A stretch of 64,000 bases of DNA, from assembly GCA_024654625.1 (NCBI GenBank), contig JANLHB010000016.1:137-64136 (forward strand), written 5' to 3'. Both the position numbers and the translations under genes were made by a program. Below the pieces are notes generated by a model. That model was not told the origin of the DNA, searched no databases, and was given only the letters and a program-made list of their open reading frames with translations. Origin of the DNA: Patescibacteria group bacterium (GTDB taxonomy: Bacteria > Patescibacteriota > Minisyncoccia > GCA-002772825). Position 1 is the stretch's first letter. Every line of letters starts with the position of its first letter. Positions 5,140 to 24,798 of the stretch are shown here, piece by piece.

Positions 5140-7419
5140 ATGGTTAAAGGAGTTGAGGCCACAAAAAACGTTTCCAAACTTATAAAAAGCATAAAGAAAC
5201 GCGACGGGAAGATTGTCCCTTTTGATATTAACAGGATTTCAAGTGCCGTGGGCAAAGCGATGAAATCTACCGGTGAGGGAGGAGAGTTTGACGCTCATAG
5301 AATAGCTGAAAAGGTAGTTCTTTATCTATATAAAACCAATATTAAGAATAAGTATTTCATCCCTACTGTGGAGGAAGTCCAAGATACTGTGGAAAGGGAG
5401 CTTATCTGGGAAGATTTTGCCGATACTGCCAAGGCTTATATTATTTATCGCGACAGGAGGGCGCAAGTGCGCGCGCAAGAATCGCAGGTTCCTGAAAATG
5501 TGAAGAAGCTTACGGAAGAAAGCAGTAAATATTTTAAAAATCAATTGGCGGAATTTATTTTCTATAGAACTTATGCCAGATGGGTTGAAAGTGAAGGAAG
5601 AAGAGAGACGTGGATTGAAACTGTTGACCGCTATATTGATTTTATGAAAGAGAATTTAAAAGGCAAACTTAGCGATGTTGAATATAAAGAAGTGAGAGAA
5701 GCGATATTAAGGCAAGATGCGATGCCATCTATGAGGCTGTTTCAATTTGCCGGCAAGCCGGCGCGTGAGACGAACGTTTGCGCTTACAACTGTTCATTTA
5801 TCGCTCCTTCAAGATTGCAGGACTTCGGAGAGATTATGTATATTTTAATGTGTGGAACAGGTCTTGGTTTTTCTGTTGAGAGCAGGAATGTTCAAGCATT
5901 ACCGCAGATAAAAGAACAAAGCGGTAAGAAACTTCCGGTATATGTTATTGCTGATAGTAAAGAAGGCTGGGCTGATGCTATTGTTCATGGGATGAAAACT
6001 TGGTTTGATGGGAATGATGTTGAGTTTGATTATTCAAAGTTGCGGCCAGCCGGAGCAAGGCTTAAGACTTTTGGAGGAAGATCATCCGGTCCTGATCCAT
6101 TAAGACAGGTGCTTGAGTTTACCCGCGAGAAGATATTGAAGAAACAGGGCAGGAGGCTCTTAAATATAGATGTGCATGATATTGTATGCAAAATAGGCGA
6201 AGTGGTTGTTTCGGGCGGAGTGAGAAGAAGCGCCTTGATATCACTCTCAGACCTTGATGATGTGGAAATGCGAGACGCAAAGAAAGGACAGTTTTATCTG
6301 GCAGAACCACATAGAATGCTTGCGAATAATTCCGCTGTTTATTTAGAAAAGCCAAGCAATGAAGAGTTTATGGATGAATGGGTGGCTCTTATGAAGAGTC
6401 GTTCCGGCGAAAGGGGCATATTCAATAGAGGGGGGTTATTAAAAACTATTCCGGAAAGACGTATTAAGGTTTTAGGAGGACATATTAATGACTTGGGGGT
6501 TAATCCTTGCGGAGAGATAATTCTTCAACCAAGGCAATTTTGCAACCTTTCTGAAATAGTGGCGCGCGCCATAGATGATGAGAAAAGTCTTTTAAAGAAG
6601 ATGAAGATCGCGGTTATTTTAGGGACTTATCAGTCTACTCTCACAAATTTTAAATATCTTTCTAAAGAATGGAAAGAAAATTGCGAGAAAGAACGGTTGC
6701 TTGGCATTTCTATTACCGGCCAGTGGGATTGCCCGGCTGTCCGTGACGGAAAAGTGTTAGAAAAGCTTAAAAATGAAGCGGTCAGATTAAATAAAATATA
6801 TGCCAAAAAGTTTGGCGTGAATCAATCCACTTCCATTACTTGCATTAAACCGTCAGGCACACTTTCTCAGCTTGTGGATTCTTCATCAGGAATGCATCCA
6901 AGGCACGCAAAGTATTATATAAGGCGTGTAAGGATTTCAGCTACAGATCCTTTATTTAAAATGATGAAAGATCAGAAGTTCCCATATAAGCCGGAAGTCG
7001 GCCAGAATATGGACGAAGCTCATACTTTCGTTTTAGAGTTTCCTGTTAAGGCGCCATCAGGGTCTATTTTTAAAGATGATATGAATGCGATAGAGCAATT
7101 GGAACACTGGAAGATGGTGAAGAATTATTATACAGAGCATAATCCTTCAGTGACTATCTCTGTGGGGGAGAATGAATGGCTTGGAGTCTCTAACTGGCTT
7201 TATGAGAATTGGGATCTTGTAGGTGGTTTATCGTTCCTGCCGAGGGAAGATCATGTCTACTTACTCGCTCCTTATGAAGCTATTAGTAAAGAAAGATATG
7301 AAGAGATGGTAAATAAGCTAGGGAAGATTGATTTTTCAAGAATCGTGTTGCATGAGGCGCAGGATAACACTGAAGTAAAAAAAGAGCTTGCATGCGCCGC
7401 AGGTACTTGCGAGATATAG
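5140..7419 (+). CDS. nrdJ: Adenosylcobalamin-dependent (class II) ribonucleoside-triphosphate reductase with N-terminal ATP-cone
   Basis: ATP-cone start (VPFDINRISSAVGKA), active-site motif NPCGEI, C-terminal CAAGTCEI cysteine pair typical of monomeric class II RNR. Confidence 0.75.
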   Translation: MVKGVEATKNVSKLIKSIKKRDGKIVPFDINRISSAVGKAMKSTGEGGEFDAHRIAEKVVLYLYKTNIKNKYFIPTVEEVQDTVERELIWEDFADTAKAYIIYRDRRAQVRAQESQVPENVKKLTEESSKYFKNQLAEFIFYRTYARWVESEGRRETWIETVDRYIDFMKENLKGKLSDVEYKEVREAILRQDAMPSMRLFQFAGKPARETNVCAYNCSFIAPSRLQDFGEIMYILMCGTGLGFSVESRNVQALPQIKEQSGKKLPVYVIADSKEGWADAIVHGMKTWFDGNDVEFDYSKLRPAGARLKTFGGRSSGPDPLRQVLEFTREKILKKQGRRLLNIDVHDIVCKIGEVVVSGGVRRSALISLSDLDDVEMRDAKKGQFYLAEPHRMLANNSAVYLEKPSNEEFMDEWVALMKSRSGERGIFNRGGLLKTIPERRIKVLGGHINDLGVNPCGEIILQPRQFCNLSEIVARAIDDEKSLLKKMKIAVILGTYQSTLTNFKYLSKEWKENCEKERLLGISITGQWDCPAVRDGKVLEKLKNEAVRLNKIYAKKFGVNQSTSITCIKPSGTLSQLVDSSSGMHPRHAKYYIRRVRISATDPLFKMMKDQKFPYKPEVGQNMDEAHTFVLEFPVKAPSGSIFKDDMNAIEQLEHWKMVKNYYTEHNPSVTISVGENEWLGVSNWLYENWDLVGGLSFLPREDHVYLLAPYEAISKERYEEMVNKLGKIDFSRIVLHEAQDNTEVKKELACAAGTCEI

Positions 7420-7498: not shown

Positions 7499-7506
7499 TT
7501 AATATA

Positions 7507-8074
7507 GTTTACGTTGGGTAATCGCTCTGTTTTTAAAAAACAGGGAGGAAAGTCCGAACACCCTCCAATCCGCTCCGCCAGCTGGCGGACGGATTGAGAG
7601 AAGTAAGCAGAGGGTAATACCCTCCGCTCCAGCAGTGATGTTGGGGTAGGGAAATCCCGATTTTGATTTATCAAAATCGAGGACACTCGACCAGTAAGGT
7701 CGGTGGTGCCACAGAGACAATACTAGTCCGCCTCGGCGGACAAAAGGTGAAAAGACTGAAGGTGTTCCGCCGGTTAGCGGATGCTACCTCAGTGTTATAA
7801 TCGGCAACGATTATAAGTGGTAAACCCTGTTTGGTGCAAGGCCGTGTTGCCAGCGCTTCGCATTGGAAATCCGAAACTCGAATATCGAAATTCGAAACAA
7901 ATACTAAAATTCAAAATTGTTTCGTGCTTCGGATTTATGATTTCGTGCTTCCAATGCGTAGCGTTGGCAGAGTGCCGCTTGATTCCGCTTGGCAACTGGC
8001 GGAACAGATAAATGATTATCGCTGTTTTTACTCTCGGGTAAATTCAGTACAGAATTCGGCTTATAGACGTAAAC
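7507..8074 (+). ncRNA. rnpB: RNase P RNA (bacterial type A) with expanded P12-like helix
   Basis: P4 strands GGAAAGTCCGAAC and ACAGAATTCGGCTTATA with compensatory changes. GGTAAACCC...GCAAGGCC motif. P1 pairing gtttacgt/acgtaaac at the ends. Confidence 0.85.
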
Positions 8075-8081
8075 ATGAATA

Positions 8082-10469: not shown

Positions 10470-11036
10470 ATGGAGAATCTAATTAATAAAAAAGTAACTG
10501 ATATGGAGTTTGAAGTGTATCAAAATGAAGACACAAAGAAGGTAAGATTAGCGGATTATAAAGGCAAGTGGGTGGCGCTGGTCTTTTATCCTGCGGATTT
10601 TACTTTTGTATGTCCGACAGAGCTTGAAGAGCTCGCCAATAGTTATGATCTTTTTAAGAAAGAAGGCGCGGAGATTATTTCGGTAAGCACTGATACGGTT
10701 TTTGTTCACAAGGCGTGGCATGACAATTCACCGGCTATTAAAAAGATTAAATACCCTATGGCGGCTGATCCTACAGGTAATCTCTCTAGGGAGTTTGGTG
10801 CATATATAGAAGAGGAGGGGCTTGCTCTAAGAGGAAGTTTCCTTATCAATCCAGAGGGCATAGTGAAGGCTTATGAGATTCATGACAACAGTGTCGGTAG
10901 GAGTGCTAGAGAGCTTCTGCGCAAGCTTCAGGCGGCAAAGTTTGTAGCAGAGCACTCTGGAAATGTGTGTCCGGCAAGTTGGGAACCGGGCAAGGATACT
11001 CTAAAGCCGGGAATGGACTTGGTGGGGAAGATATAA
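10470..11036 (+). CDS. ahpC: Typical 2-Cys peroxiredoxin (AhpC/Tsa family)
   Basis: Peroxidatic FTFVCPTE and resolving VCPASW motifs. Confidence 0.85.
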   Translation: MENLINKKVTDMEFEVYQNEDTKKVRLADYKGKWVALVFYPADFTFVCPTELEELANSYDLFKKEGAEIISVSTDTVFVHKAWHDNSPAIKKIKYPMAADPTGNLSREFGAYIEEEGLALRGSFLINPEGIVKAYEIHDNSVGRSARELLRKLQAAKFVAEHSGNVCPASWEPGKDTLKPGMDLVGKI

Positions 11037-11149
11037 GCGATAACATAAAAATAATTTTAGAAATTGACTTCTTCCAGAACGGTCTCCGCCAGCTGGCGGA
11101 AGGGAAATTCTTCAGAAGTCAAATTTCTAAAATTATTTTTGACTTAATT

Positions 11150-11731
11150 ATGAAATACGAAACAAAAAATTTTGAAGCACTTATCGGAACAGAGGGTTTC
11201 AGTGATACTCTTTTGAAAAATCATTTTACTCTTTACGAAGGATATGTGGCCAATTTTAATAAATTGAATGATATTCTTATTGCTATGGAAAAGGAAGATA
11301 AATTCGGCTCGCCGGAATTTGCGGAATTAAACAGAAGATTTGGGTGGGAATTTAACGGTATGAGACTTCACGAACTTTACTTTGGTAATATTTCAAAAGT
11401 GGGCAAAGAAATAAATAAAAATGCAGATCTCTATAAGAAAATTGAAGAAGAGTGGGGTTCTTATGATATGTGGGAGAAAGATTTTCGTTCAATGGGCGCG
11501 ATGAGGGGGATCGGCTGGGTAATCTTGTACTATGATAAAGAGAGCGGAAGATTGTTTAATGTCTGGGTAAACGAACATGATGTTGGACACTTGTCTGGCG
11601 CTACGCCTCTTCTTGTGATGGATGTATTTGAACATGCTTTTCTCACGGACTATGGTTTAAAGCGGGCAGATTATATCGCGAACTTTATGAAGGTGATAGA
11701 TTGGAATACTGTTGAATCAAGATTGCGATAA
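11150..11731 (+). CDS. Fe/Mn-family superoxide dismutase
   Basis: Conserved Fe/Mn SOD C-terminal metal-ligand motif DVFEHAF plus GWVIL core. The true start is probably the internal ATG at 11150, because the 10967 ORF start overlaps ahpC. Confidence 0.75.
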   Translation: MKYETKNFEALIGTEGFSDTLLKNHFTLYEGYVANFNKLNDILIAMEKEDKFGSPEFAELNRRFGWEFNGMRLHELYFGNISKVGKEINKNADLYKKIEEEWGSYDMWEKDFRSMGAMRGIGWVILYYDKESGRLFNVWVNEHDVGHLSGATPLLVMDVFEHAFLTDYGLKRADYIANFMKVIDWNTVESRLR

Positions 11732-11819: not shown

Positions 11820-13607
11820 ATGGAGACTAAAAATATAAGAAATTTCAGCATTATCGCTCACATTGACCATGGCAAATCAACTCTTGCCGATCGTTTGATA
11901 GACAAAACTAACGCTGTTGAAAAAAGGAAAATGAGAGAGCAGGTGCTTGATGTGATGGAGCTTGAGCGCGAGCGCGGTATCACTATAAAAATGCAACCCG
12001 TGAGGATGAGCTATAAGTTGCAGGATACAAACTATCAGCTAAATTTGATAGACACTCCCGGGCATATAGATTTCTCTTATGAGGTATCAAGGGCTCTAAA
12101 GGCTGTTGAGGGAACGATACTTCTTGTCGATGCTACTCAAGGAGTGCAAGCTCAGACTTTTTCCACTCTTGAGATGGCAGAGAAAAGCGGACTCGTCATT
12201 ATCCCTGTTTTAAATAAGATAGATATGCCAGCCGCAAGAGTTGATGTTGTGTTGAAAGAAGTGATGGATCTTTTGGGTTGCGATGAAAAGGACGTGCTTA
12301 AAGTTTCGGCAAAGACAGGCGAAGGAGTAGATGAACTTATCGCAGAGATAATCAAACGTATTCCTGCTCCTGTTCACGGTTCTGAATCAGGGTCGCGAGC
12401 GCTTGTTTTTGACTTTGAATATTCCAATCATCAGGGCGTTATTGTGTATGCCAGAGTAACTGACGGCTCATTTAAGAAGGGCGATGAGCTCGTTTTGATT
12501 GCCGGTAAAGAAAAATTTATTGCCGGAGAGGTTGGCATCTTTACTCCAGAGAGGAAAGAAATTTCCATTTTAAACGAGGGCGAGACTGGTTATATCGTTA
12601 CAAATATAAAAAAGCCGAATGTTGCCGTAGTCGGCGATACGGTTACTTCTTTTAAGAAGCCTCTTCCTCCTCTTTCCGGATATTTCAAGCCGAGCCCCGT
12701 TGTCTGGGCAAGTATTTATCCTGAAGGGCAAGATGATTTTGACGATTTAAAACAGGCTCTTATGAAGCTAAGCCTTTCTGATTCATCGCTTGAGTTTGAG
12801 GAAGAGACTCAGGGGGCGCTTGGGAGAGGATTTCGCTGCGGTTTTTTGGGAATGCTTCACTTGGAGATAGTGCTTGAGCGCCTAAAGAGAGAATTTTCTT
12901 TGGATCTTATAACCGCTTCGCCTACTATTTCTTATGAAGTGGAATTTGTTTCCGGCAAGAAAGAGATTATTCGTTCACCTATTTTTTTTCCGGAAACGCA
13001 TTTAATTAAAAAAGTTTTTGAGCCGTGGGTTAATTTTGAGATTATTACCACCTCGGAAAAAGTGGGAGATATTATGAAGCTTTGTTACGAGCATGAGGCT
13101 CTGGTTGCAGACACAAATCAGTTTGGAAAAGAAAGGATTTCAATGAATGGAGAGATGCCTCTTCGCGAACTTATGAGAGGTTTTTTTGATAAGCTTAAGA
13201 GCGTATCTTCGGGGTATGCGTCTATCTCTTATAAAATAGGCGATATGAGGGAGGCTGATGTGGTGAAACTTGAGATACTTGTGGCCGATGAGCCGATTGT
13301 CGCCTTTACTAAAATAATATCAAGAAGGAGAGTAAACATAGAGGCAGAAGAAGCTGTTGAGAAACTGCATAAAATCTTGCCTAGGCAACTTTTTGTCATT
13401 AAAATCCAGGCCAAAGCGCTTGGCAGGATAATCTCTTCTCGGGCAATATCCGCGATGAAGAAAGATGTTACCGGATATCTTTACGGAGGAGATATCTCCA
13501 GGAAAAAGAAGTTATGGGAAAAACAGAAAAAAGGCAAGAAAAAAAAAGAGGCTTTTTCTAAGGTAAACATTCCTCAAGAAGTTTTCTTAAAGATGATGAA
13601 AAGTTAG
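11820..13607 (+). CDS. lepA: Elongation factor 4 (LepA)
   Basis: IRNFSIIAHIDHGKSTLADRL G-domain and LepA-specific C-terminal domain. Confidence 0.9.
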   Translation: METKNIRNFSIIAHIDHGKSTLADRLIDKTNAVEKRKMREQVLDVMELERERGITIKMQPVRMSYKLQDTNYQLNLIDTPGHIDFSYEVSRALKAVEGTILLVDATQGVQAQTFSTLEMAEKSGLVIIPVLNKIDMPAARVDVVLKEVMDLLGCDEKDVLKVSAKTGEGVDELIAEIIKRIPAPVHGSESGSRALVFDFEYSNHQGVIVYARVTDGSFKKGDELVLIAGKEKFIAGEVGIFTPERKEISILNEGETGYIVTNIKKPNVAVVGDTVTSFKKPLPPLSGYFKPSPVVWASIYPEGQDDFDDLKQALMKLSLSDSSLEFEEETQGALGRGFRCGFLGMLHLEIVLERLKREFSLDLITASPTISYEVEFVSGKKEIIRSPIFFPETHLIKKVFEPWVNFEIITTSEKVGDIMKLCYEHEALVADTNQFGKERISMNGEMPLRELMRGFFDKLKSVSSGYASISYKIGDMREADVVKLEILVADEPIVAFTKIISRRRVNIEAEEAVEKLHKILPRQLFVIKIQAKALGRIISSRAISAMKKDVTGYLYGGDISRKKKLWEKQKKGKKKKEAFSKVNIPQEVFLKMMKS

Positions 13608-15637: not shown

Positions 15638-15670
15638 ATAAAACGCCTCGCTTTGTCGGGGCGTTTTATT
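15638..15670. terminator. Rho-independent terminator after rplK
   Basis: aaaacgcctcgctttgtcggggcgttttatttt hairpin plus T-run. Confidence 0.55.
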
Positions 15671-15687
15671 TTGCTATAATGATCCTT

Positions 15688-16365
15688 ATGGATAAATATG
15701 AGATTGAAGTGAAGAGTCTATTGGGGAACGAGTCTATGGCGCAAGCCTTTAGAGAGAAGATGGTGGAGATTGACCCGAGTGTGGAAACTATCTCTCGGCA
15801 TAGTCAGATAAACCATTATTTTATAGATGGTGATATTAATTTTCTCCATGAGAAGATGCTGGCACATGTTCCACAAGAGAAGCATGAGAACTTAAGAAAT
15901 ATTATTGTTGATGGAAAAAATCATTCTATAAGAGTGCGGTTGGCCGATGAAGATTTGATATTCGTCATCAAGTCTTCTATAGATGACACTACAAGCGATA
16001 ACGGTATCTCACGGCTTGAGTTTGAACATAAGATGCCACACTTGAGCATTGATGAGTTAGATCAAATATTATTTGATGCTGGTTTTTCTTATCAGGCCAA
16101 GTGGTCTAGGGAAAGGGAAGAGTATAAGTTAGGTGATATAAATATTTGTTTGGATAAAAATGCAGGTTACGGTTATTTAGTTGAATTTGAATCAGTGGTG
16201 AGTGATGCTAGTGAAGCGGAAGAAGTGAAAGATAGGATATATAGATTGATGGAAAAGATGGAGGCCGAAGAGCTTGATCAAGACAGGCTCGCGCGGATGT
16301 TTGAACACTATAATAATAATTGGAAGGATTACTATGGCACGGATAAGGTTTTTTCAATAGAGTAG
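15688..16365 (+). CDS. CYTH-like domain protein (putative triphosphate tunnel metalloenzyme)
   Basis: N-terminal ExExK (YEIEVK) and C-terminal acidic motif (GYLVEFES). The start is probably ATG 15688, directly after the TGcTATAAT box at 15672-15680, giving a possibly leaderless mRNA. Confidence 0.4.
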   Translation: MDKYEIEVKSLLGNESMAQAFREKMVEIDPSVETISRHSQINHYFIDGDINFLHEKMLAHVPQEKHENLRNIIVDGKNHSIRVRLADEDLIFVIKSSIDDTTSDNGISRLEFEHKMPHLSIDELDQILFDAGFSYQAKWSREREEYKLGDINICLDKNAGYGYLVEFESVVSDASEAEEVKDRIYRLMEKMEAEELDQDRLARMFEHYNNNWKDYYGTDKVFSIE

Positions 16366-16419
16366 ATTTGATACATAGTCAATATAGATTAAAGTTTCTT
16401 ATTTGTAATAATAATTAAA

Positions 16420-17511
16420 ATGGTTTTATCTTTTCAGGATATAAAAAGAATGATCTCAGGGCAAAATCCTATTATTTTGTCTGATATCCCCTTTGCCGAA
16501 AATCAGATTCAACCCTCTACTATTGATTGTAGGCTTGGTAATAGGGTTTATCGTATGAGCACTGCAATGATACCAAGAAGAGAGGAGTCAATCGCTCAAC
16601 TTATAGATAAATATAAGTTATATGAGTTTGAGCTTAGGGAGGGGTCTGTTTTAGAAAAAGGAGCTTCTTATATAATTCCCCTTCTCGAGAAGCTTAATTT
16701 GCCAGACGAATTGAACGCTATTTTTAGTCCTAAGAGCTCGACCGGTAGAGTTGATGTCTTTTGCCGTGTTTTAGTTGACGGGAATCCTCATTACGACATA
16801 ACTGAATCTGGGTATAGTGGTAATCTATACTTGGAAGTTTCTCCTCAATCTTTTTCGGTCGGTATTACGCCGGGCCTTGCTTTGGTTCAGATGAGGATTA
16901 GGCAAGAAAATGTTTTTCTTAGTGATGATGACTTAAAAAGTCTTCAAAAGAGTGATGGTATAATTTACAACGATGTCGGCAAGGATGACAATCCGGTAAT
17001 AAAAAATAATAGCACTTATCTTCATGTAGATTTGCTGAGTGATGTCGTTGGGTTTGAGGCAAAGGATAATTCCGGTAAGTATATTAATTTATTCAAAAAA
17101 GATTTTTATGAGGCTGATGATTTTTGGATACCGATAAAGCGCCCCAAGAATGGAGAGTTGATATTAACCCCCGGTAGATTCTATCTGCTTGCCAGCAAAG
17201 AAAGAATAAGAATTCCTTCTTCTGTCTGCGCCGAGGTTGAAGCTTATGATTTAAATTTTGGCGAATTCCGTACTCATTATGCCGGTTTTTTTGACAATGG
17301 CTTCGGAGGTGACGATGGAACCAGGGCCGTGCTTGAGGTCAGGGTGCATGATGTCCCTTTCAGAATTTGCGATAATCAGCCTATTTGCAGAATGACCTTT
17401 GAAAAGACTAAAGAGGTTCCAGAAATGCTTTATGGAAAAGATCTTAATTCTAACTATGTAAGCAATAAGCCGTCTCTAAGCAAGCATTTTAAAAATAGAC
17501 TCTGGTATTAA
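16420..17511 (+). CDS. Long-form dCTP deaminase family protein (DCD, about 360 aa type)
   Basis: N-terminus matches the dCTP deaminase/dUTPase-fold signature (FQDIKRMI...IQPSTIDCRLGN). Confidence 0.55.
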   Translation: MVLSFQDIKRMISGQNPIILSDIPFAENQIQPSTIDCRLGNRVYRMSTAMIPRREESIAQLIDKYKLYEFELREGSVLEKGASYIIPLLEKLNLPDELNAIFSPKSSTGRVDVFCRVLVDGNPHYDITESGYSGNLYLEVSPQSFSVGITPGLALVQMRIRQENVFLSDDDLKSLQKSDGIIYNDVGKDDNPVIKNNSTYLHVDLLSDVVGFEAKDNSGKYINLFKKDFYEADDFWIPIKRPKNGELILTPGRFYLLASKERIRIPSSVCAEVEAYDLNFGEFRTHYAGFFDNGFGGDDGTRAVLEVRVHDVPFRICDNQPICRMTFEKTKEVPEMLYGKDLNSNYVSNKPSLSKHFKNRLWY

Positions 17512-17521
17512 TCATAAAAAT

Positions 17522-18970
17522 ATGAATAAGGATTTATCTTGGCCAATTAGATATCAGGAAATGTTGCTGCTGGGTAATCCTAAGTCAAATATCGGAGTTG
17601 TTTGTAATTGGACACTGAAGAGCAAAATAGATGATAATTTAAAAAATAAGGATTATCTGGTAATGGGCCAGCTCTATAGTAGCGATATAGGAATATCGTC
17701 CATCATAAGAAATGTGATGGCTCATCAACATATTGATACGATTATATTATGTGGAAATGAGGGAATGATAGAAGAGACTAGGGGAGGGCGTGCATTCCTA
17801 AACCTTATTAAGAATGGAATTGATGAAAATCATAAGATCATAGGTTCAAATTATTCAAAAATAGAAAAAGAGATTCCGGTTGAAAATATTAATGAATTCA
17901 GGAAAAGAATTAAAATTATAGATCTTCTCGGCGTTAATGATGTTTCAAAAATAGAAGAAGCCATTAACGAAAATTTGAAAAAGAAAAATAAGACTTTTGA
18001 AGTTAAATTATTCCCGGAACCAGAAAAAACAAAAGATGTTGAGTTGCCGTCGGAAGGGGCGGTATTTGTTGTAAGGCGTAATAAGGTAGCACACTGTTGG
18101 TTAGACATTTTAAAGAACATAACACATTTCGGGAATATTAAAGGGACTCAATATGGTGACAGGCAAAAAGAAGTGATAAATCTTGTCGCGGTTATCGAGG
18201 ATGAAGATGTTGATAACCCATTTTTGCCGGATTATGTTAAATTAACAAAAAAACAGATTGAAGATTACTCACCAACTATTACAACGGCTATGGAAGTTGA
18301 AGGGTCAAAGTATACATATGGTCAAAGATTAAGAGATCATGATGGAGTTGATCAGATTCAGAATATAATTAATGAGATAAGTGAAGCACCCTTTTCAAGA
18401 AGGGCTGTCGCTTCAACAATCAACGTGAAGATGGATAGTGGTAGTGGTAATCCACCGTGCTTGGATATTGTTCAAGTGTTAGTCCAAGAAAATAAATTAT
18501 ATTTAACAAGTTATATTCGTTCAAATGATATGTATATGGCCTGGCCTGAAAATGCTTTTGGGCTACTCTCTCTTCAGAAGCTTATAATTGAAGAGGTGAA
18601 TAAAAAGATAAAAGGAGAACAACTTGTGAAAGGTTCAATTACAACTATTTCTTGTTCTGCTCATGTATACGAAAGAGAGTGGGAGGATGTTAAAAAGATG
18701 TTATCTAGTAACGAGAGGTTGGAGTGCGCTTGGGATCCAAGGGGTTATTTTATCATAAGCATAGAAGACGGATTAATTAAAGTTTATAATTCTAATGACC
18801 CGGTTAATTTAAGGTGGGAAGGAAAAACAGCTTCTGAAATAATGGATAAGATTATTTTTTATATTTCGATAATGCCGCATGCCGCTGATTTGGGTATGGA
18901 ATTAATGAAAGCGGAAATTGCATTAAAATATGGTCATAGGTACATACAAGATAATCCATTGATTTTGTAA
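17522..18970 (+). CDS. Thymidylate synthase (ThyA)-family protein with about 190-aa N-terminal extension of unknown function
   Basis: The C-terminal half aligns with ThyA: SRRAVASTINV, catalytic NPPC, YIRSND (Arg/Ser/Asp of the dUMP site), WPEN (Asn as in uracil-specific enzymes). The N-terminal domain is unassigned (weak LOG/Rossmann-like DTIILCGNEGMIEE). Confidence 0.6.
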   Translation: MNKDLSWPIRYQEMLLLGNPKSNIGVVCNWTLKSKIDDNLKNKDYLVMGQLYSSDIGISSIIRNVMAHQHIDTIILCGNEGMIEETRGGRAFLNLIKNGIDENHKIIGSNYSKIEKEIPVENINEFRKRIKIIDLLGVNDVSKIEEAINENLKKKNKTFEVKLFPEPEKTKDVELPSEGAVFVVRRNKVAHCWLDILKNITHFGNIKGTQYGDRQKEVINLVAVIEDEDVDNPFLPDYVKLTKKQIEDYSPTITTAMEVEGSKYTYGQRLRDHDGVDQIQNIINEISEAPFSRRAVASTINVKMDSGSGNPPCLDIVQVLVQENKLYLTSYIRSNDMYMAWPENAFGLLSLQKLIIEEVNKKIKGEQLVKGSITTISCSAHVYEREWEDVKKMLSSNERLECAWDPRGYFIISIEDGLIKVYNSNDPVNLRWEGKTASEIMDKIIFYISIMPHAADLGMELMKAEIALKYGHRYIQDNPLIL

Positions 18971-19053
18971 TTTTTATTGCAAATATCCTGATTATGAGGT
19001 AAAAGTATCACTAGATAGATATTTAAAAATTAACCTAACAAAGGGAGATAAAT

Positions 19054-19707
19054 ATGAAAAAAGGCAAATTCATAGTGATAGAGGGTGGAGAAGGGGCCGG
19101 TAAGGGTATGGTCATGGCGTTTTTGAGGGAGAAGTTGGCTCTACGTGATGATGTCGTCTTTACGAGGGAACCCGGGGGAACTCCTGTTGCTGAGAAGATC
19201 AGAGAAGTCCTTATGGATAAAGAGAATAAGAACACATCTGTTTTAGCTGAACTTTTCCTCTTCTGCTCAGCTCGGGCGCAACATGTGGACGAGCTTGTAA
19301 GACCTTCGCTTGAGGCCGGCAAGATAGTAATAAGCGACAGATTTGATATGTCGACTTTGGCGTATCAGATCTATGGCAGACAGAGGCCAACTTTTCAGAA
19401 GATTTTTATTCTGTTGAATGATATTGCCAAGACGGGTCTTAGACCAGATTCGGTCATCTACCTTGATGTTGATCCGGTCGTCGGTCTTGAAAGGAAGCAC
19501 AAGAGCGACGAAGGTCACTGTACGCGCTTTGATGTGGAGAATCTTAGTTTTCATGAAAGGGTGCGTGCCGGGTATACTGCGCAGTATAAGGAGGCGATTA
19601 AAGATAGGAGCAACCCCGCCTGGTTCTTAGTTGCCACAACAAAGATGGCGGAAAAAGAGGTTAAGAAAACCGTGTGGGGGATAGTTGAAAAAACTGTAAA
19701 CACTTAA
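19054..19707 (+). CDS. tmk: Thymidylate kinase
   Basis: P-loop IVIEGGEGAGKG and DRFDMSTLAYQ signature. Confidence 0.85.
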   Translation: MKKGKFIVIEGGEGAGKGMVMAFLREKLALRDDVVFTREPGGTPVAEKIREVLMDKENKNTSVLAELFLFCSARAQHVDELVRPSLEAGKIVISDRFDMSTLAYQIYGRQRPTFQKIFILLNDIAKTGLRPDSVIYLDVDPVVGLERKHKSDEGHCTRFDVENLSFHERVRAGYTAQYKEAIKDRSNPAWFLVATTKMAEKEVKKTVWGIVEKTVNT

Positions 19708-19734
19708 CTTGCGAAATAAAAGGAGGTAAAGGAG

Positions 19735-21090
19735 ATGAATATAAAGCTCGTTTCAAAAAGTGTAATAGATCCTCAAGTCCTTGCTTCTTATGCGGCAAAA
19801 GGATGCTATGAAGCGGAAGAGCCGGAGTTGGGTAAGAAGATAGATCTTCAAAAACGCATATTCAACGTTGGGCACCACACAGTTCTTCAGCACAATCACT
19901 ATACTTTTCACATAGAAGGGATAGCGGTAAGCGACATAACCTTTGGCCTGCACCTTGCGAGCCCCTTTTACAACTCAAGCCAGAGGTCAGGCAGATTTTG
20001 TTCTGCTATGTTTTCCTCTCCCGACTACGGAAAGATAGAACAGTACATAAGAACATATTGGCCCGAGGTTGGAAATGGAGAGGTTGCTCTTGCTTTAAAT
20101 CTTGTAAAAGGCGGGATTGAAATCTTTCAGTCAAACATAGACAAGGCGACAAAAATCGCCAAGCATCTAATTAAAGGAGAACGGCCTTTTGCTTCCGAAA
20201 GCTACATAGAGGCGAATGCCGGAAAGTTTGCTCAAGAGCAGATGAGGATGTTTGTCCCAACAATATTCCCAACAGGGATAACCGTAACCTTTAACTTGTC
20301 CGCCCTTGTTTCAATGTATAGGGTGGCATGGTCTCCTGTGTTAAAGCATGTAACTTCGGAGATGATGCGTCTTGCTCTTTGCGACACACCAGAGCTTAAC
20401 TTTATGCTTGAAAAAGAAGAACAGGAAGAGTGGCCCCTAGAGCTTTTTGCTCGGTATCATAAAGCCACAATACCTGTGTTGTCCAAGCCGAAAGGAAAGC
20501 TTGTAAGGATAGAGAATGCAAATTCTTTTACCGAGCCGAAAGGTGGGGACTCACACCCTGTTGACCTTCTTCCTTTCTCCCCCCGGTATATGAGTAATAC
20601 CAATGGGGTAATAGAAACGGAAGTAGAGATTTCTGTTGCCACAATGGGACAGGACCAGCGCCACAGAACTGTTAAAAGAGGCCAACCAAGGTTCACTGAA
20701 AGATTTTATCTTCCTCCAATCCCAAGACTTTGTGGACTTGAGGGAGTTGCGGAAAGTTTTGCTTTCGCATGGTCTTCACTTCTTAGCCTTCTTCCTGGAA
20801 GCTTGGTTACGGCGCTCGCTCCTTACGGGGCTATGGTTTCTTATCCAAAAAGAGCTGATTTCAATGCCGCCTCTCATGAGTATACCAAACGGCTTTGCTG
20901 GTGTACTCAGGAGGAGATATACCATTCTGTTCTTTCTGTAAGAAACGAAGTTTCTAAAAAAGAAGGAGAGAACAGCCCTCTACTTAAGATGTTTTCTCCT
21001 TCTTGCGTCAAGACGGGAAAATGCGGAGAAGGAAGCAGGTATTGCGGAAGAGACATGAAAGAAAACTGCTTCATAGAGAGAAAAGTATAG
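19735..21090 (+). CDS. ThyX-family (Thy1 domain, flavin-dependent thymidylate synthase-like) protein with large internal insertion
   Basis: GHHTVLQHNHYTFHIEGIAVS matches the ThyX N-terminal motif. An RHRxxxxxxxRF motif appears about 230 aa later. Length is 451 aa versus about 220-250 for ThyX. Confidence 0.5.
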   Translation: MNIKLVSKSVIDPQVLASYAAKGCYEAEEPELGKKIDLQKRIFNVGHHTVLQHNHYTFHIEGIAVSDITFGLHLASPFYNSSQRSGRFCSAMFSSPDYGKIEQYIRTYWPEVGNGEVALALNLVKGGIEIFQSNIDKATKIAKHLIKGERPFASESYIEANAGKFAQEQMRMFVPTIFPTGITVTFNLSALVSMYRVAWSPVLKHVTSEMMRLALCDTPELNFMLEKEEQEEWPLELFARYHKATIPVLSKPKGKLVRIENANSFTEPKGGDSHPVDLLPFSPRYMSNTNGVIETEVEISVATMGQDQRHRTVKRGQPRFTERFYLPPIPRLCGLEGVAESFAFAWSSLLSLLPGSLVTALAPYGAMVSYPKRADFNAASHEYTKRLCWCTQEEIYHSVLSVRNEVSKKEGENSPLLKMFSPSCVKTGKCGEGSRYCGRDMKENCFIERKV

Positions 21091-21106: not shown

Positions 21107-21143
21107 AACCCCAGGAAACCATCAAATGGTTTCCTGGGGTTTT
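21107..21143. terminator. Rho-independent terminator after the ThyX-like gene
   Basis: aaccccaggaaaccatcaaatggtttcctggggtttt perfect hairpin plus T-run. Confidence 0.65.
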
Positions 21144-21192: not shown

Positions 21193-24100
21193 ATGGAAGA
21201 TGATTTAAAATCTAAAAGTCCGGCCGAGGCGGAAAAGGACATATTGAAGTTTTGGCAGGATAATAAAATTTTTGAAAAGACATTGGAGAAGGATGCTCCT
21301 TCGGGAGATTTTATCTTCTACGATGGGCCGCCTTTTGCCAACGGTTTGCCTCATTATGGGCATATTTTGGCCAGTGTGATAAAAGACGCCATCCCTCGCT
21401 ATAAGACGATGCGAGGGTATCGCGTCCCGCGCCGATGGGGTTGGGATTGTCATGGTCTGCCTGTTGAAAATGTGGTTGAGAAAGAACTCGGACTTAAAGC
21501 TAAGAAAGATATTGAAGATCTTGGACTGGAGAAGTTTAACAAGGCCGCAAGGAATGTGGTAGTTCGCGATACAAGCGAATGGAAAAAAATTATTCCTAAG
21601 ATAGGTCGTTTTGTTGATATGGAGGCTGACTATAAGACGATGGATCCAAGTTATATGGAATCAGTCTGGTGGGTCTTTAAAACGCTTTACGATAAAGGGC
21701 TTGTCTATGAGGGATACAAGCCGATGCATCTCTGTCCGCGTTGTGAGACGACTCTTGCAAACTTTGAAGTATCTCAAGGATATAAAGATATTACTGATAT
21801 TTCAGTAACGGCTAAATTTGAGCTTGATGACGAGCCGGGCACTTTTGTCTTGGCTTGGACGACAACACCTTGGACACTCCCGGGCAATGTAGCTCTTGCA
21901 GTAAATCCTGATATTTTATATGCGAAGATTGAAAAAGACGGAGAGAGGTTTATTTTAGCGAAAGACCGCCTTGATACTATTGAAGGCGAGTATAAAATAA
22001 TAGAGACTTTTAAAGGTTTTGCATTAGCCGGTAAGAGTTATAAACCGCTTTTTGATTATTATTCAGAGAAAAAAGATTTAGAGAACAGAGAAAACGGTTG
22101 GAAGATTTATTCGGCTGATTTTGTGACGACGGAAGAAGGAACCGGAGTCGTCCACATTGCGCCGGCTTTTGGCGAGGATGATATGAATGTCTCTTTAGAA
22201 TATGCGCTTCCTTTTGTTCAACATGTCTCAGCTGACGGAAGATTTAAGAGTGAGGTAAAAGATTTTGCCGGCAGATTTGTAAAACCGAAAGAAAATCATC
22301 AAGAGACTGATATTGAGATAATAAAACATTTGGCGCACGCGGGTAAATTATTCGCCAAGAAGAAGATCGTTCACTCTTATCCGCATTGCTGGAGATGCGA
22401 CACGCCACTCTTGAATTATGCGACTTCGTCTTGGTTTGTTAAAGTTACTGCGATAAAAGATAATCTTCTTAAGAATAATGGAGAGATTAATTGGGTACCG
22501 GCTCATATAAAGGACGGGCGTTTTGGCAAATGGCTTGAAGGTGCCAGAGATTGGGCGATATCAAGGAGCAGATTTTGGGGAGCTCCTCTTCCGGTGTGGA
22601 AGTGCGATAAGTGCGATAAGCTGGAAATTGCCGGTTCAATAGACGATATTAGAAATAAAGTTAAAAAGTCAGGCAATAAATATTTTGTAATGCGTCATGG
22701 GGAGTCGGAGCATAATAAGAAAAATATTGTCAGCTCTAATGTTTTAAATCCTCATCATATTACGGAAAAAGGGAAGACGGATATAAAGGAGATTGCTCAA
22801 AAGGTAAAAAAGGAAAACATTGATATTATATTCTCTTCAGACTTCGTTCGGACAAAGGAGACTGCTGAGCTACTGGCAAGCGAGATAGGTTGCGATAAAA
22901 GGAAGATAATTTATGATAAACGTATTAGGGAATTAAACACAGGAACTTTTGATGGTAAAAGGCCGAGAGATTATCATGATTATTTTTCTACTCTTGAAGA
23001 GAAGTTTACAAAGACGCCGCCTGAAGGAGAAAATTTGGTTGAGCTTAAAAATAGAGTATCTCAATTCTTGTATGATATTGAGGAAAAATACCAAGATAAA
23101 AATATTTTAATAATAAGCCATGAGTATCCTATCTGGCTTCTTTCCGCAGGAGCTGTCGGGGCTGATATTAAGAAGTCTGTAAAGATGAAAGAGGAAAAAA
23201 GAGATGATTATATAGAAACAGGGGAGTTAATGGAACTTGATTTTGTGCCACTCCCTCATAATGAAAATTATGAAATTGATCTTCATAGGCCATATATAGA
23301 CAAGGTTGAATTTGCTTGTTCTTGTGGGGGTAAAATGAAGAGAATTATTCATGTGTTTGATTGTTGGTTTGAGTCCGGCTCTATGCCGTATGCTTCGGCG
23401 CATTATCCGTTCGCTTGCGCTCAAAATCAAAAATCAAAAATCAAAAATCAAAAATGCTTGGCATTACCGGCCGAGTTTATCGCTGAAGGATTAGACCAGA
23501 CTCGAGGATGGTTTTATACACTGCTTGTTTTATCTACGGCTCTCTTTGAAAAGCCAGCCTATAAGAATGTGATTGTAAACGGGATAATCTTGGCTGAAGA
23601 CGGCCAGAAAATCTCGAAGCGTCTTAAGAATTATCCTGATCCGATGGATGTGGTGCATAAATACGGCGCCGACGCTCTGCGTTTATATCTTCTTTCTTCA
23701 CCTGTGGTACGCGCCGAGGATCTTAATTTTTCCGAGCATGGCGTTGATGAAGTGTATAAGAAAGTGATTCTGCGCTTATGGAATGTTTACAGTTTCTACG
23801 ATATGTACGCACTTGGCGGTTCAACCGCCAAATTAAATTTGGCGGTTGAACCGCCAAATGGGGATAAGAACGTGCTGGATAAGTGGATAATCGCGCGACT
23901 TCTCGAGCTGGAGGAAGAGATAACTCTAAATCTTGAGAAGTATGAACTTGATAAAGCAACAAGACCTATTTTTGATTTTGTAGATGATCTTTCTACTTGG
24001 TATATCAGGCGCTCAAGGGATAGATTCAAGAATGAAGGTGAAGATAAAGGGAGTGCCATTTTAACCACCAGATTTGTTCTAGTGGAGTTCTCTAAAGTTA

Positions 24101-24798
24101 TCGCTCCTTTTATTCCATTTATATCAGAGAGGTTATATCAATTGATTAGTAGAGAAGATGAGGCTAAATCAAATTCACAGAATTTGATCGCCCGATCCGC
24201 CAAAGGCGGATTTAGGGAGAGTATTCATTTAGATGAATGGCCTTATAAGAAGTCGTTAGCTGATAATGTCCTGGGTATGTTTGGTGTAGATAAATCTACT
24301 AAAAATTTGGATATTCTTTATGATATGAAAGAGATAAGAAAAATCGTCTCTCTTGGTCTTGAGGCGCGCGCCGAAGCGGGGTTTAAGGTAAGGCAGCCTT
24401 TGCAAAAATTGATAATCAAAAATGAAAAGTTGAAAGGTAAAGATGATCTACTTGAGCTGGTGAAAGATGAGGTGAATGTGAAAGAGGTAGCTTTTGATGC
24501 CGGCATCTCAAATGAAGTGAAATTAGATTTGGAGCTGACGCCGGAGCTTATCGCCGAAGGGCAGTTTAGGGATATGGTGAGATTTGTCCAGGGCTTGAGG
24601 AAGAAAGCCAGCTTGACACCGGATGATGAGATTTCCGTCTCTGTAAAGACGAGTTCTTCCGGACAAGAATTACTAAAGAAATTTGAAAATGAGTTTAAGG
24701 AGATTGTTAACGCGAGGACTGTGGAGTTCAAGGATATAGAAGATGGAGAGCTGTTGAAATTAGATGACCTGGAAATACATATAAAAATCACGAAATAA
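21193..24798 (+). CDS. ileS: Isoleucyl-tRNA synthetase (type 2) with inserted histidine-phosphatase (PGM-family) domain
   Basis: PPFANGLPHYGH and KISKRLKN class I motifs and a CP1 editing domain (WTTTPWTLPGN). A roughly 200-aa insertion carries RHGESEHN, SSDFVRTKETAE and ISHEYPI histidine-phosphatase motifs. Confidence 0.9.
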   Translation: MEDDLKSKSPAEAEKDILKFWQDNKIFEKTLEKDAPSGDFIFYDGPPFANGLPHYGHILASVIKDAIPRYKTMRGYRVPRRWGWDCHGLPVENVVEKELGLKAKKDIEDLGLEKFNKAARNVVVRDTSEWKKIIPKIGRFVDMEADYKTMDPSYMESVWWVFKTLYDKGLVYEGYKPMHLCPRCETTLANFEVSQGYKDITDISVTAKFELDDEPGTFVLAWTTTPWTLPGNVALAVNPDILYAKIEKDGERFILAKDRLDTIEGEYKIIETFKGFALAGKSYKPLFDYYSEKKDLENRENGWKIYSADFVTTEEGTGVVHIAPAFGEDDMNVSLEYALPFVQHVSADGRFKSEVKDFAGRFVKPKENHQETDIEIIKHLAHAGKLFAKKKIVHSYPHCWRCDTPLLNYATSSWFVKVTAIKDNLLKNNGEINWVPAHIKDGRFGKWLEGARDWAISRSRFWGAPLPVWKCDKCDKLEIAGSIDDIRNKVKKSGNKYFVMRHGESEHNKKNIVSSNVLNPHHITEKGKTDIKEIAQKVKKENIDIIFSSDFVRTKETAELLASEIGCDKRKIIYDKRIRELNTGTFDGKRPRDYHDYFSTLEEKFTKTPPEGENLVELKNRVSQFLYDIEEKYQDKNILIISHEYPIWLLSAGAVGADIKKSVKMKEEKRDDYIETGELMELDFVPLPHNENYEIDLHRPYIDKVEFACSCGGKMKRIIHVFDCWFESGSMPYASAHYPFACAQNQKSKIKNQKCLALPAEFIAEGLDQTRGWFYTLLVLSTALFEKPAYKNVIVNGIILAEDGQKISKRLKNYPDPMDVVHKYGADALRLYLLSSPVVRAEDLNFSEHGVDEVYKKVILRLWNVYSFYDMYALGGSTAKLNLAVEPPNGDKNVLDKWIIARLLELEEEITLNLEKYELDKATRPIFDFVDDLSTWYIRRSRDRFKNEGEDKGSAILTTRFVLVEFSKVIAPFIPFISERLYQLISREDEAKSNSQNLIARSAKGGFRESIHLDEWPYKKSLADNVLGMFGVDKSTKNLDILYDMKEIRKIVSLGLEARAEAGFKVRQPLQKLIIKNEKLKGKDDLLELVKDEVNVKEVAFDAGISNEVKLDLELTPELIAEGQFRDMVRFVQGLRKKASLTPDDEISVSVKTSSSGQELLKKFENEFKEIVNARTVEFKDIEDGELLKLDDLEIHIKITK
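23421..23454 (+). repeat. Heptanucleotide tandem repeat (TCAAAAA)x about 5 inside ileS coding sequence
   Basis: tcaaaa tcaaaaa tcaaaaa tcaaaaa tcaaaaa, translating to AQNQKSKIKNQK in a normally conserved YPFEN...FPADFIAEG segment. Confidence 0.8.
23813..23857. repeat. 45-bp inverted repeat (20-bp perfect arms, 5-nt loop) embedded in ileS coding sequence
   Basis: ttggcggttcaaccgccaaa ttaaa tttggcggttgaaccgccaa. Translated in frame as GGSTAKLNLAVEPPNG. Confidence 0.8.

Follow-up and report, generated by a model that had tools for sequence, protein, structure and literature searches.

The gene cluster at positions 16420-21090 of a 64,000-nucleotide stretch of contig JANLHB010000016.1 (assembly GCA_024654625.1, Patescibacteria group bacterium), referred to below as the window, is probably a housekeeping operon leading from deoxycytidine triphosphate (dCTP) to thymidine diphosphate (dTDP), in which thymidylate (dTMP) would be formed by two alternative synthases, both variants of known enzymes. 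Cells cannot do without thymidylate synthesis, which is also a drug target and a classic example of one job done by two unrelated enzymes. The first enzyme is a ThyA-type thymidylate synthase (TS) fusion with an MtrA-like domain before the TS core and a C-terminal PterinBD (DUF4346) domain after it; the second is a ThyX-like protein consisting of a fused pair of ThyX domains. Both appear from their sequences to be uncharacterised structural variants, the fusion being common in bacteria of the Candidate Phyla Radiation (CPR), DPANN archaea and phages, and the fused ThyX in Patescibacteria. The original prediction had described four genes of the deoxypyrimidine pathway, with two non-canonical TS-like enzymes flanking a thymidylate kinase gene. 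The four co-directional open reading frames (ORFs) match its coordinates and lengths exactly (363, 482, 217 and 451 amino acids, aa), both TS-like enzymes are non-canonical in architecture and the family assignments support the pathway. The genes and their domains are as follows.

16420-17511, + strand, long two-domain dCTP deaminase (DCD_N and DCD_C), 363 aa (NF005734)
17522-18970, + strand, ThyA-type three-domain TS fusion, 482 aa
17522-18016, + strand, MtrA-like Rossmann-type domain of the fusion, aa 1-165 (Pfam MtrA, PF04208, 67 bits, cutoff 25)
18056-18721, + strand, TS core of archaeal/methanogen type, aa ~179-400 (TIGR03283; Pfam Thymidylat_synt, PF00303)
18722-18970, + strand, PterinBD-DUF4346 domain in place of a free TS C-terminus, aa 401-482 (Pfam PF14251)
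19054-19707, + strand, canonical thymidylate kinase (tmk), 217 aa (TIGR00041; Pfam Thymidylate_kin)
19735-21090, + strand, ThyX-like two-domain protein, 451 aa
19735-20418, + strand, N-domain of the ThyX-like protein, aa 1-228, a complete ThyX fold (hhalign against canonical ThyX)
20476-21090, + strand, C-domain of the ThyX-like protein, aa 248-451, a degenerate ThyX domain with Q-x-Q-RHR, the R174 equivalent and a Cys4 site

For both synthases the analysis established which domains they contain, how their residues are conserved, how the families are distributed and which genes surround them; what they make, what the accessory domains do, how the chains assemble and which metal is bound were predicted from this.

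The TS core of the fusion was matched by Pfam Thymidylat_synt with 62.6 bits (gathering cutoff 24.3). A family profile of the fusion searched against the PDB retrieved genuine TS at E = 1e-23, aligned to residues 112-302 of 316 of the Lactobacillus casei enzyme. In an alignment of 33 cellular members C313, R333, S334, N344, H381, Y383 and Y266 are invariant and D336 and R293/R294 nearly so, with a one-to-one alignment to L. casei C198, R218, S219, N229, H259, Y261, D221 and R178/R179; the catalytic residues also align with those of Escherichia coli TS. The nucleophile C313, equivalent to E. coli C146, lies in the motif NPPCL and is invariant in the 33 cellular and in 78 viral members. The residues that bind deoxyuridine monophosphate (dUMP) in E. 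coli TS (R166, S167, N177, H207, Y209, Y94 and R126'/R127') all have equivalents in the fusion. Copies on viral contigs (L164-L243, from IMG/VR) keep the catalytic residues and have Gly at the Leu143 position; in most of them R293/R294, the equivalents of the inter-subunit phosphate-binding pair R126'/R127', are replaced by Ala/Ser.

An extra N-terminal domain had been predicted for this protein; it is real, covers aa ~1-165 and is MtrA-like, whereas the third domain, PterinBD-DUF4346 at aa ~401-482, had been missed. The MtrA-like domain matched PDB entry 5laa by sequence at E = 8e-17 (2.4e-22 with the family profile). It shares with MtrA (PDB entries 5laa and 5l8x), the corrinoid subunit of the methyltransferase acting between methyl-tetrahydromethanopterin and coenzyme M, the Rossmann-type fold and the contacts to the cobamide nucleotide tail (T53, here S53, with G57 and N64). 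The cobalamin hallmarks of MtrA are His84, Glu54 and the segment GAIPF-(Y/F)-xEN (PMC4915002). In the fusion the cobalt ligand His84 is replaced by T86 (Ser/Ala in relatives) and its partner Glu54 by S54, the segment and the membrane anchor are absent and a TS is inserted. The fusion thus appears not to bind cobalamin in the manner of MtrA.

PterinBD was assigned with PF14251 (51 bits, gathering cutoff 29.6, match aa 405-477), and pterin binding is predicted for it. It also matches the C-terminus of the archaeal DHPS-like family TIGR00284 and model positions 289-369 of NF002128; a sequence search of the PDB with this domain alone found no relative. In NF002128, an NCBIfam family of 390-aa proteins named 'MtrA', the MtrA-like domain is followed immediately by PterinBD, so this family holds both flanking parts of the fusion. 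Because the two parts are contiguous in NF002128 and PterinBD also ends TIGR00284, they form a module that exists elsewhere in association with pterin enzymes, and the TS core looks inserted between its halves. As the profile alignment stops at L. casei residue 302, PterinBD begins where a canonical TS enters its free C-terminal lid. In canonical TS the free C-terminus closes the cofactor site and is important for the enzyme.

The fusion is closest in its core to archaeal TS (TIGR03283/PF00303; EC 2.1.1.45), with which it shares the fold, the Cys nucleophile, the equivalents of R166, S167, D169, N177, H207, Y209 and Y94 and the R126'/R127' pair. It differs from archaeal TS in the two flanking domains, a polar Leu143 equivalent, the absent free C-terminus, a score below the family cutoff and the lack of folA synteny: tblastn with E. 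coli FolA and Thermotoga maritima ThyX probes gave no match at any of 83 fusion loci, a search in which divergent DHFRs could be missed. Protozoan DHFR-TS resembles the fusion in concept and domain order only, having an N-terminal alpha/beta domain fused to TS and pterin handling linked to dTMP synthesis. DHFR-TS chains gave the top Foldseek E-values for the model of the whole fusion, but only the TS domain truly matches, and no NADPH motif was identified in the fusion. A DHFR-like N-domain was rejected (root-mean-square deviation about 18 A, TMq 0.34), the domain being MtrA-like by sequence.

The extra regions of both proteins, whose being typical of their lineages would have spoken for ordinary enzymes, turned out to be just that. 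The three-domain fusion has more than 589 metagenomic matches in Patescibacteria/CPR and DPANN archaea, and a full-length homologue with 28-32% identity is carried by no fewer than 99 viral contigs, many of them 80-200 kb in length; the ThyX-like form is found in more than 596 proteins. Natural further fusions join the TS fusion to Tmk (P0078) or to a dUTPase (P0089). Among the neighbours of the fusion at the 83 loci are deoxycytidine monophosphate (dCMP) deaminase (15 loci), tmk (11) and DCD (2), and a further TS-type gene within 10 kb was confined to L081 (the sister genome), L082/L083/L129 and L125. When 133 neighbouring ORFs at 13 non-redundant viral fusion loci were classified with Pfam, both subunits of ribonucleotide reductase (RNR), large and small, were found together with Tmk, dCMP deaminase and accessory proteins of DNA polymerase; no glycosyltransferase or hypermodification enzyme was among them. 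With neighbours such as RNR, Tmk and dCMP deaminase and no hypermodification genes, the context of the fusion is that of a dTMP supplier.

The 451-aa protein had been described as a ThyX-family member of non-canonical architecture; it consists of two tandem ThyX-type domains and not of one ThyX with an extension. Pfam Thy1 (PF02511) matched with 58.7 bits (gathering cutoff 24.8), and with an AlphaFold (AF2) model (pLDDT 86.6, pTM 0.86) Foldseek found ThyX structures only. The T. maritima ThyX sequence was verified against PDB entry 1kq4, and a canonical ThyX profile was built for hhalign. Conservation was counted in 80 species-level representatives with 38-52% identity, including metagenome-assembled genomes (MAGs) of Alphaproteobacteria.

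The N-domain aligned end to end with canonical ThyX (hhalign probability 97.3%, E = 2.7e-11). In T. maritima numbering, H53 corresponds to H47, S88-G-R90-Y91 to S85-G86-R87-F88, R147 to R171 and R74 to D67; R78-H79-R80 is replaced by G71-L72-H73, with G71 and H73 invariant (80/80) and L/M at 72, and the segment with R174 is deleted. The C-domain shares with ThyX the anchors QDQ-RHR (RQWF-RHR in ThyX), FYLPP (FYIPS), NA (NA) and KR386-LCWC-AQEEI (LR174-ADSH-AQWEI), and its order of secondary-structure elements in the AF2 model mirrors that of a compact ThyX domain. H47, S85, G86, R171, Q306, R309, H310, R311, R315, R386, C388, C424, C430 and C437 are invariant in all 80 representatives, and R87, the R90 equivalent, is kept in 78.

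Neither domain holds the RHR-x7-8-S motif of a single ThyX subunit: the N-domain has S85 without RHR and the C-domain RHR without an aligned Ser. In T. maritima ThyX, R78, R80, S88 and R90 form hydrogen bonds to dUMP (PMC3498832). Equivalents of these residues and of R147 and R174 are all present, divided into R309/R311/R386 in the C-domain and S85/R87/R171 in the N-domain. The active site of PBCV-1 ThyX takes Gln75 and Arg182 (R174) from monomer A and the Ser88-Arg90 loop from monomer B (PMC3498832); the C-domain retains precisely the residues of monomer A and the N-domain precisely those of monomer B. The chain consists of two fused ThyX domains, with the homology of the C-domain resting on collinearity, motifs and predicted secondary structure, and because the division of residues matches the two-monomer site we infer an obligate pseudo-heterodimer.

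Canonical homotetrameric ThyX (TM0449, PBCV-1, Mycobacterium tuberculosis) is thus matched in the full fold of the N-domain, in the residues contacting dUMP and flavin adenine dinucleotide and in a context of dCMP deaminase and tmk. The differences from it are a single chain with two domains, complementary loss of residues (RHR and R174 only in the C-domain; H53, S88, R90 and R147 only in the N-domain), half the predicted number of sites and an added Cys4 site. The latter (C388, C424, C430 and C437) lies in a glycine-rich C-terminal loop modelled by AF2 with low confidence; we infer a metal site, either structural Zn or an Fe-S cluster. A recent tandem duplication of one ThyX domain was rejected, as hhalign of the N-half against the C-half was not significant and BLASTP gave only a 14-residue hint; a duplication, if any, would be ancient.

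Members of the family are all about 440-475 aa long, compared with ~210-260 aa for a canonical ThyX subunit. Among the neighbours at the 80 loci are dCMP deaminase (about 24), tmk (20) and DCD (5), and in 79 of the 80 no other TS-type gene lies within 10 kb. The context is that of the organism's thymidylate synthase. The family was found on only two viral contigs. The exception among the 80 loci is L005 (6446-7753, a Moraniibacteriota MAG), where an E. coli-like thyA (61% identity) and a folA (35%) stand directly upstream of the ThyX-like gene; they resemble a pair of proteobacterial genes gained recently and added on at the dTMP locus.

The other two enzymes of the cluster are clear members of their families. 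The long-form dCTP deaminase scored 367.8 bits with the NF005734 equivalog model (cutoff 283), with Pfam DCD, DCD_N and DCD_C matches at E about 1e-51 to 1e-54; it may correspond to the CPR-related Dcd2 clade (PMC10733785). Tmk scored 152.2 bits with TIGR00041 (equivalog cutoff 83.25) and E = 1.5e-38 with Pfam Thymidylate_kin. The spacings between the four ORFs are, in order, 10, 83 and 27 bp. The features around them are listed below.

15679-16365, + strand, CYTH (triphosphate-tunnel) domain protein (Pfam CYTH, E = 2.4e-10)
16368-16395, + strand, promoter-like site upstream of the dCTP deaminase gene (TTGATA-16-TAAAGT, 9/12 matches, weak and by consensus match only)
21107-21141, + strand, intrinsic-terminator-like hairpin closing the cluster (16-bp stem with 8 G-C pairs, then a T-run)
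5140-7419, + strand, class II (B12-type) RNR with ATP-cone (Pfam ATP-cone, RNR_Alpha, RNR-II_ins_dom and Ribonuc_red_lgC)

The hairpin, directly 3' of the ThyX-like gene, is the strongest terminator-like site of the regional scan. The small distances between the genes and the strong terminator after the last of them are the basis for reading the cluster as a single operon. The CYTH gene, 54 bp upstream of the dCTP deaminase gene and with a further promoter-like site at its start (15653-15680), is possibly the first gene of the operon; it is syntenic in L081 and adjoins the TS fusion also in L110 and L120. The class II RNR upstream had been predicted at 5140, and both its B12-type insertion domain and its ATP-cone were recovered. 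NusG, L11, LepA, IleRS, RecO, MetRS, RecA, FtsK, L10/L12 and RNase P RNA are encoded around the cluster, and an NCBI entry labelled 'Parcubacteria group bacterium' has a sequence 100% identical to that of the ThyX-like protein. Given these housekeeping neighbours and this identity, the host DNA is a chromosome of a Parcubacteria-group (CPR) bacterium and not a phage.

In the proposed pathway RNR would supply deoxynucleoside triphosphates, the long dCTP deaminase would form deoxyuridine triphosphate (dUTP), a step not identified in the window would convert dUTP to dUMP, either of the two unrelated synthases would convert dUMP to dTMP and Tmk would phosphorylate dTMP. In the fusion Cys313 would act as the nucleophile, with dUMP held by R333, S334, N344, H381 and Y383 and the pterin by D336; the MtrA-like/PterinBD module may hold or deliver the reduced pterin that donates the one-carbon unit and may take over the shielding otherwise given by Leu143 and the free C-terminal lid, both absent here. 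The ThyX-like protein would work as a ThyX-type flavoenzyme in the form of a fused pseudo-dimer. Its N-domain would contribute the substrate loop S85-G-R87, H47 and R171, and its C-domain Q306/Q308, R309-H310-R311 and R386, giving one composite active site per polypeptide; a dimer would then mimic the canonical tetramer with half the sites, and the Cys4 site would bind structural Zn or an Fe-S cluster, as predicted above.

Several observations weigh against this reading. The original prediction had called for a check on dut and folA; none of dut, folA, glyA and folD was found among the ORFs of at least 120 aa in the window, which leaves the dUTP-to-dUMP step and pterin recycling without a gene. 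The dCTP deaminase could be bifunctional and close the first gap, or dut and the folate genes could lie elsewhere in the genome; one speculative option for the dUTP-to-dUMP step is the CYTH protein. Among NCBIfam models the fusion is matched best by TIGR03283, whose equivalog cutoff of 174.55 it narrowly misses with 167.9 bits. It has no free C-terminal carboxylate, about 80 aa of PterinBD following the end of the TS alignment, and at the Leu143 equivalent it has N310 where a bulky hydrophobic residue is expected. When the short TS core was searched with Foldseek, the best per-target match was a phage TS-fold dCMP hydroxylase (PDB entry 9iqu, TMt 0.75). The ThyX-like protein reaches only 40.1 bits with TIGR02170 (cutoff 87.9); its C-domain is collinear with ThyX over 175 columns at a statistically weak E = 0.011 and has no Pfam, NCBIfam or PDB sequence match. 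The literature searched reports no enzyme activity for either family and nothing on the TS fusion, on two-domain or Cys-rich ThyX or on DUF4346. Archaeal-type TS enzymes are themselves barely characterised (PMC9931769).

The joint presence of a ThyA-like and a ThyX-like gene had been called unusual, and it is: the two stand together at 1 of the 83 fusion loci and at no more than 1 of the 80 ThyX-like loci outside this lineage. The pairing could be a transient product of lateral transfer in which one gene is recently acquired and redundant and one will be lost, with no division of labour. This was considered unlikely, though the observations in its favour are several. Coexistence of thyA and thyX in one genome was recorded for 20 species in one survey and read as a transition of lateral transfer and loss (PMC2826268), the pairing is confined to a narrow lineage, and at L005 a thyA-folA pair has been inserted beside the ThyX-like gene. 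The window and L081 share the whole gene order with flanking proteins 84-95% identical, amid which the ThyX-like proteins (19735-21090 in the window, 8357-9706 in L081) are only 52% identical, with the differences evenly spread and the catalytic motifs intact. This suggests in-place allelic replacement or unusually fast evolution; a half-gene swap was rejected because the divergence is even along the gene. On the other hand, both genes are intact with complete sets of invariant residues in the window and in L081, and they lie in one operon with a single terminator. The cofactor needs of the two enzymes also differ (a pterin oxidised to the dihydro form against flavin and a reductant), and condition-dependent use, for example according to oxygen or pterin supply, is equally plausible. 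Transfer would in any case address why both genes are present and is compatible with the operon reading of what each enzyme does.

It is improbable that the 451-aa protein is a ThyX relative that has acquired another nucleotide substrate, which would leave the fusion as the only dTMP synthase. Such a change is known for the ThyX paralogue PolB (PMC5954106). The low TIGR02170 score and a whole-family profile whose match to ThyX in the PDB is no better than E about 0.008 and covers just the first ~55 residues mark an extreme divergence, and the motif broken within each domain, the four extra invariant cysteines and the 52% identity between near-identical syntenic genomes point the same way. The equivalents of R78, R80, S88, R90, R147 and R174 are collectively kept (80/80, R87 78/80), however, the gene stands beside dCMP deaminase in about 24 and tmk in 20 of the 80 loci, 79 of which have no other TS within 10 kb, and these small genomes need a source of dTMP. 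The protein, like the fusion, most likely makes ordinary dTMP.

A further possibility for the fusion, entertained with little confidence, is a self-contained TS that never releases dihydrofolate. The bound pterin would be recycled in place, or a methyl group would pass from a methyl-pterin on PterinBD to a His-off corrinoid on the MtrA-like domain and on to the Cys-activated dUMP, the more radical version, in which a methyl relay of the Mtr kind is combined with a TS. Such an enzyme would account for the loss of Leu143 and the lid, for the absent folA synteny and for the ability of the three domains to travel as one unit into phages. A parallel and less radical idea, held with equally little confidence, is that the Cys4 site of the ThyX-like protein could be a [4Fe-4S] cluster through which ferredoxin and not NADPH supplies the flavin.

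The original prediction had further proposed that one of the two enzymes makes a modified dUMP derivative such as 5-hydroxymethyl-dUMP. In canonical TS, Leu143 and the C-terminal lid favour hydride transfer over attack by water. Diagnostic positions of the ThyA superfamily were tested in a 2026 study: Asn at N177 indicates dUMP and Asp dCMP; Asn at D169 marks flavin-dependent 5-hydroxy-dCMP synthases; and a hydrophobic residue at L143 excludes water and gives a methyl product, Asp/Glu being found there in hydroxymethylases (PMC13326640). The fusion has an invariant Asn344 at N177 (the dUMP signature) and Asp336 at D169, the folate-type signature and a pterin contact. At the third position the 83 cellular loci show K24/N22/H11/S7/E6 and others and never a bulky hydrophobic residue; the position is acidic in 7 of 77 cellular members and Gly in 66 of 80 viral homologues. 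Neither the hydroxymethylase signature (an acid at 143, with Asp at N177 for dCMP enzymes) nor that of the 5-hydroxy-dCMP synthases (D169N with N177D) is present, and at the Leu143 site the family fits neither synthase nor hydroxymethylase.

Phage base modifiers (T4 dCMP hydroxymethylase, the dUMP hydroxymethylases, RB69 gp48 and HY126 AfhB) do share with the fusion the TS fold and a non-hydrophobic Leu143 site, and the short TS core is structurally similar to AfhB (TMt 0.75), with the fusion family abundant on phage contigs. They differ from it at the three positions, the fusion having Asn and not Asp at N177, Asp and not Asn at D169 and no conserved acid at 143, and in being accompanied by glycosyltransferase or hypermodification genes. 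A phage-type pyrimidine hypermodification cluster was not found here either, since the genome is cellular and the operon holds no gene for a DNA-modifying glycosyl-, amino-acyl- or pyrophosphoryl-transferase. In contrast to the per-target ranking of Foldseek, the sequence profile places genuine TS first. Judged from these residues and its neighbours, the fusion most likely makes ordinary dTMP.

That one of the enzymes, the fusion being the likeliest, is a dUMP hydroxymethylase or other C5-modifier whose product the kinase passes into DNA while the other enzyme supplies dTMP is very improbable on the sequence evidence, which gives no support for a hypermodified base: the polar N310, the missing lid, the similarity to 9iqu, two synthase-type genes flanking a kinase in a single operon, the frequency of the architecture on phage contigs and the second TS homologue beside the fusion in L082 would fit it, but the Leu143 site is variable (K/N/H/S/E/G) and not a conserved acid, N177 and D169 are those of a dUMP- and folate-using enzyme, the closest solved proteins by profile are genuine TS, the fusion is the sole TS-type gene within 10 kb in most lineages, it has dCMP deaminase and tmk as neighbours or forms one chain with dUTPase or Tmk, its phage copies lie among RNR, Tmk and replication genes, the adjacent kinase is a canonical dTMP kinase above its equivalog cutoff, and in L082 the hydroxymethylase-like Asp143 sits in the other TS homologue and not in the fusion. 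The homologue in question, at 11844-12797 (- strand) of L082 and also present in L083 and L129 (another Patescibacteria lineage), is a divergent 317-aa ThyA homologue beside the fusion and a dCMP deaminase gene. With Asp in place of Leu143 (DPPC) and Asn at N177, it carries a dUMP-hydroxymethylase-like signature in a cellular genome.

Both families are large, occur in CPR, DPANN and their phages, which are among the least-understood branches of life, and are annotated simply as 'thymidylate synthase', yet they deviate from the textbook enzymes in features considered important for the mechanism. The fused ThyX bears on how a homotetramer with shared active sites can become a pseudo-heterodimer with divided labour, and it would be a naturally occurring half-sites variant that has gained a metal centre. 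The ThyA flanked by MtrA-like and PterinBD domains bears on how organisms with ThyA manage without FolA and on which pterin the archaeal-type synthases use. Both proteins are small and soluble-looking.

Other features of the window were recorded. The isoleucyl-tRNA synthetase gene that follows the cluster (21193-24798) encodes 1201 aa with an inserted histidine-phosphatase domain (His_Phos_1, motif RHGE); the translation itself shows the motif, and the annotation of the L081 orthologue includes the domain. Class A RNase P RNA lies at 7506-8079 (+ strand) between the RNR gene and murJ (124 bits, E = 1e-37), the match covering 574 bases for a model of 367 positions, so that large insertions are present. 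Oxygen-defence genes at 720-1184 and 10470-11731 encode hemerythrin, peroxiredoxin and Fe/Mn superoxide dismutase, and they may be relevant to running an oxygen-sensitive ThyX. The listed superoxide dismutase ORF starts with a GTG that lies within the peroxiredoxin gene, and the match is confined to the C-terminal domain of the dismutase. A TrwB/VirD4-like coupling ATPase (2033-4495, - strand) and an IS200-type Y1 transposase (49222-49887, + strand) point to traffic of mobile DNA. Surface-type proteins of very large size are encoded at 44738-48286 and 50670-55460, the latter with a lamin-tail domain.

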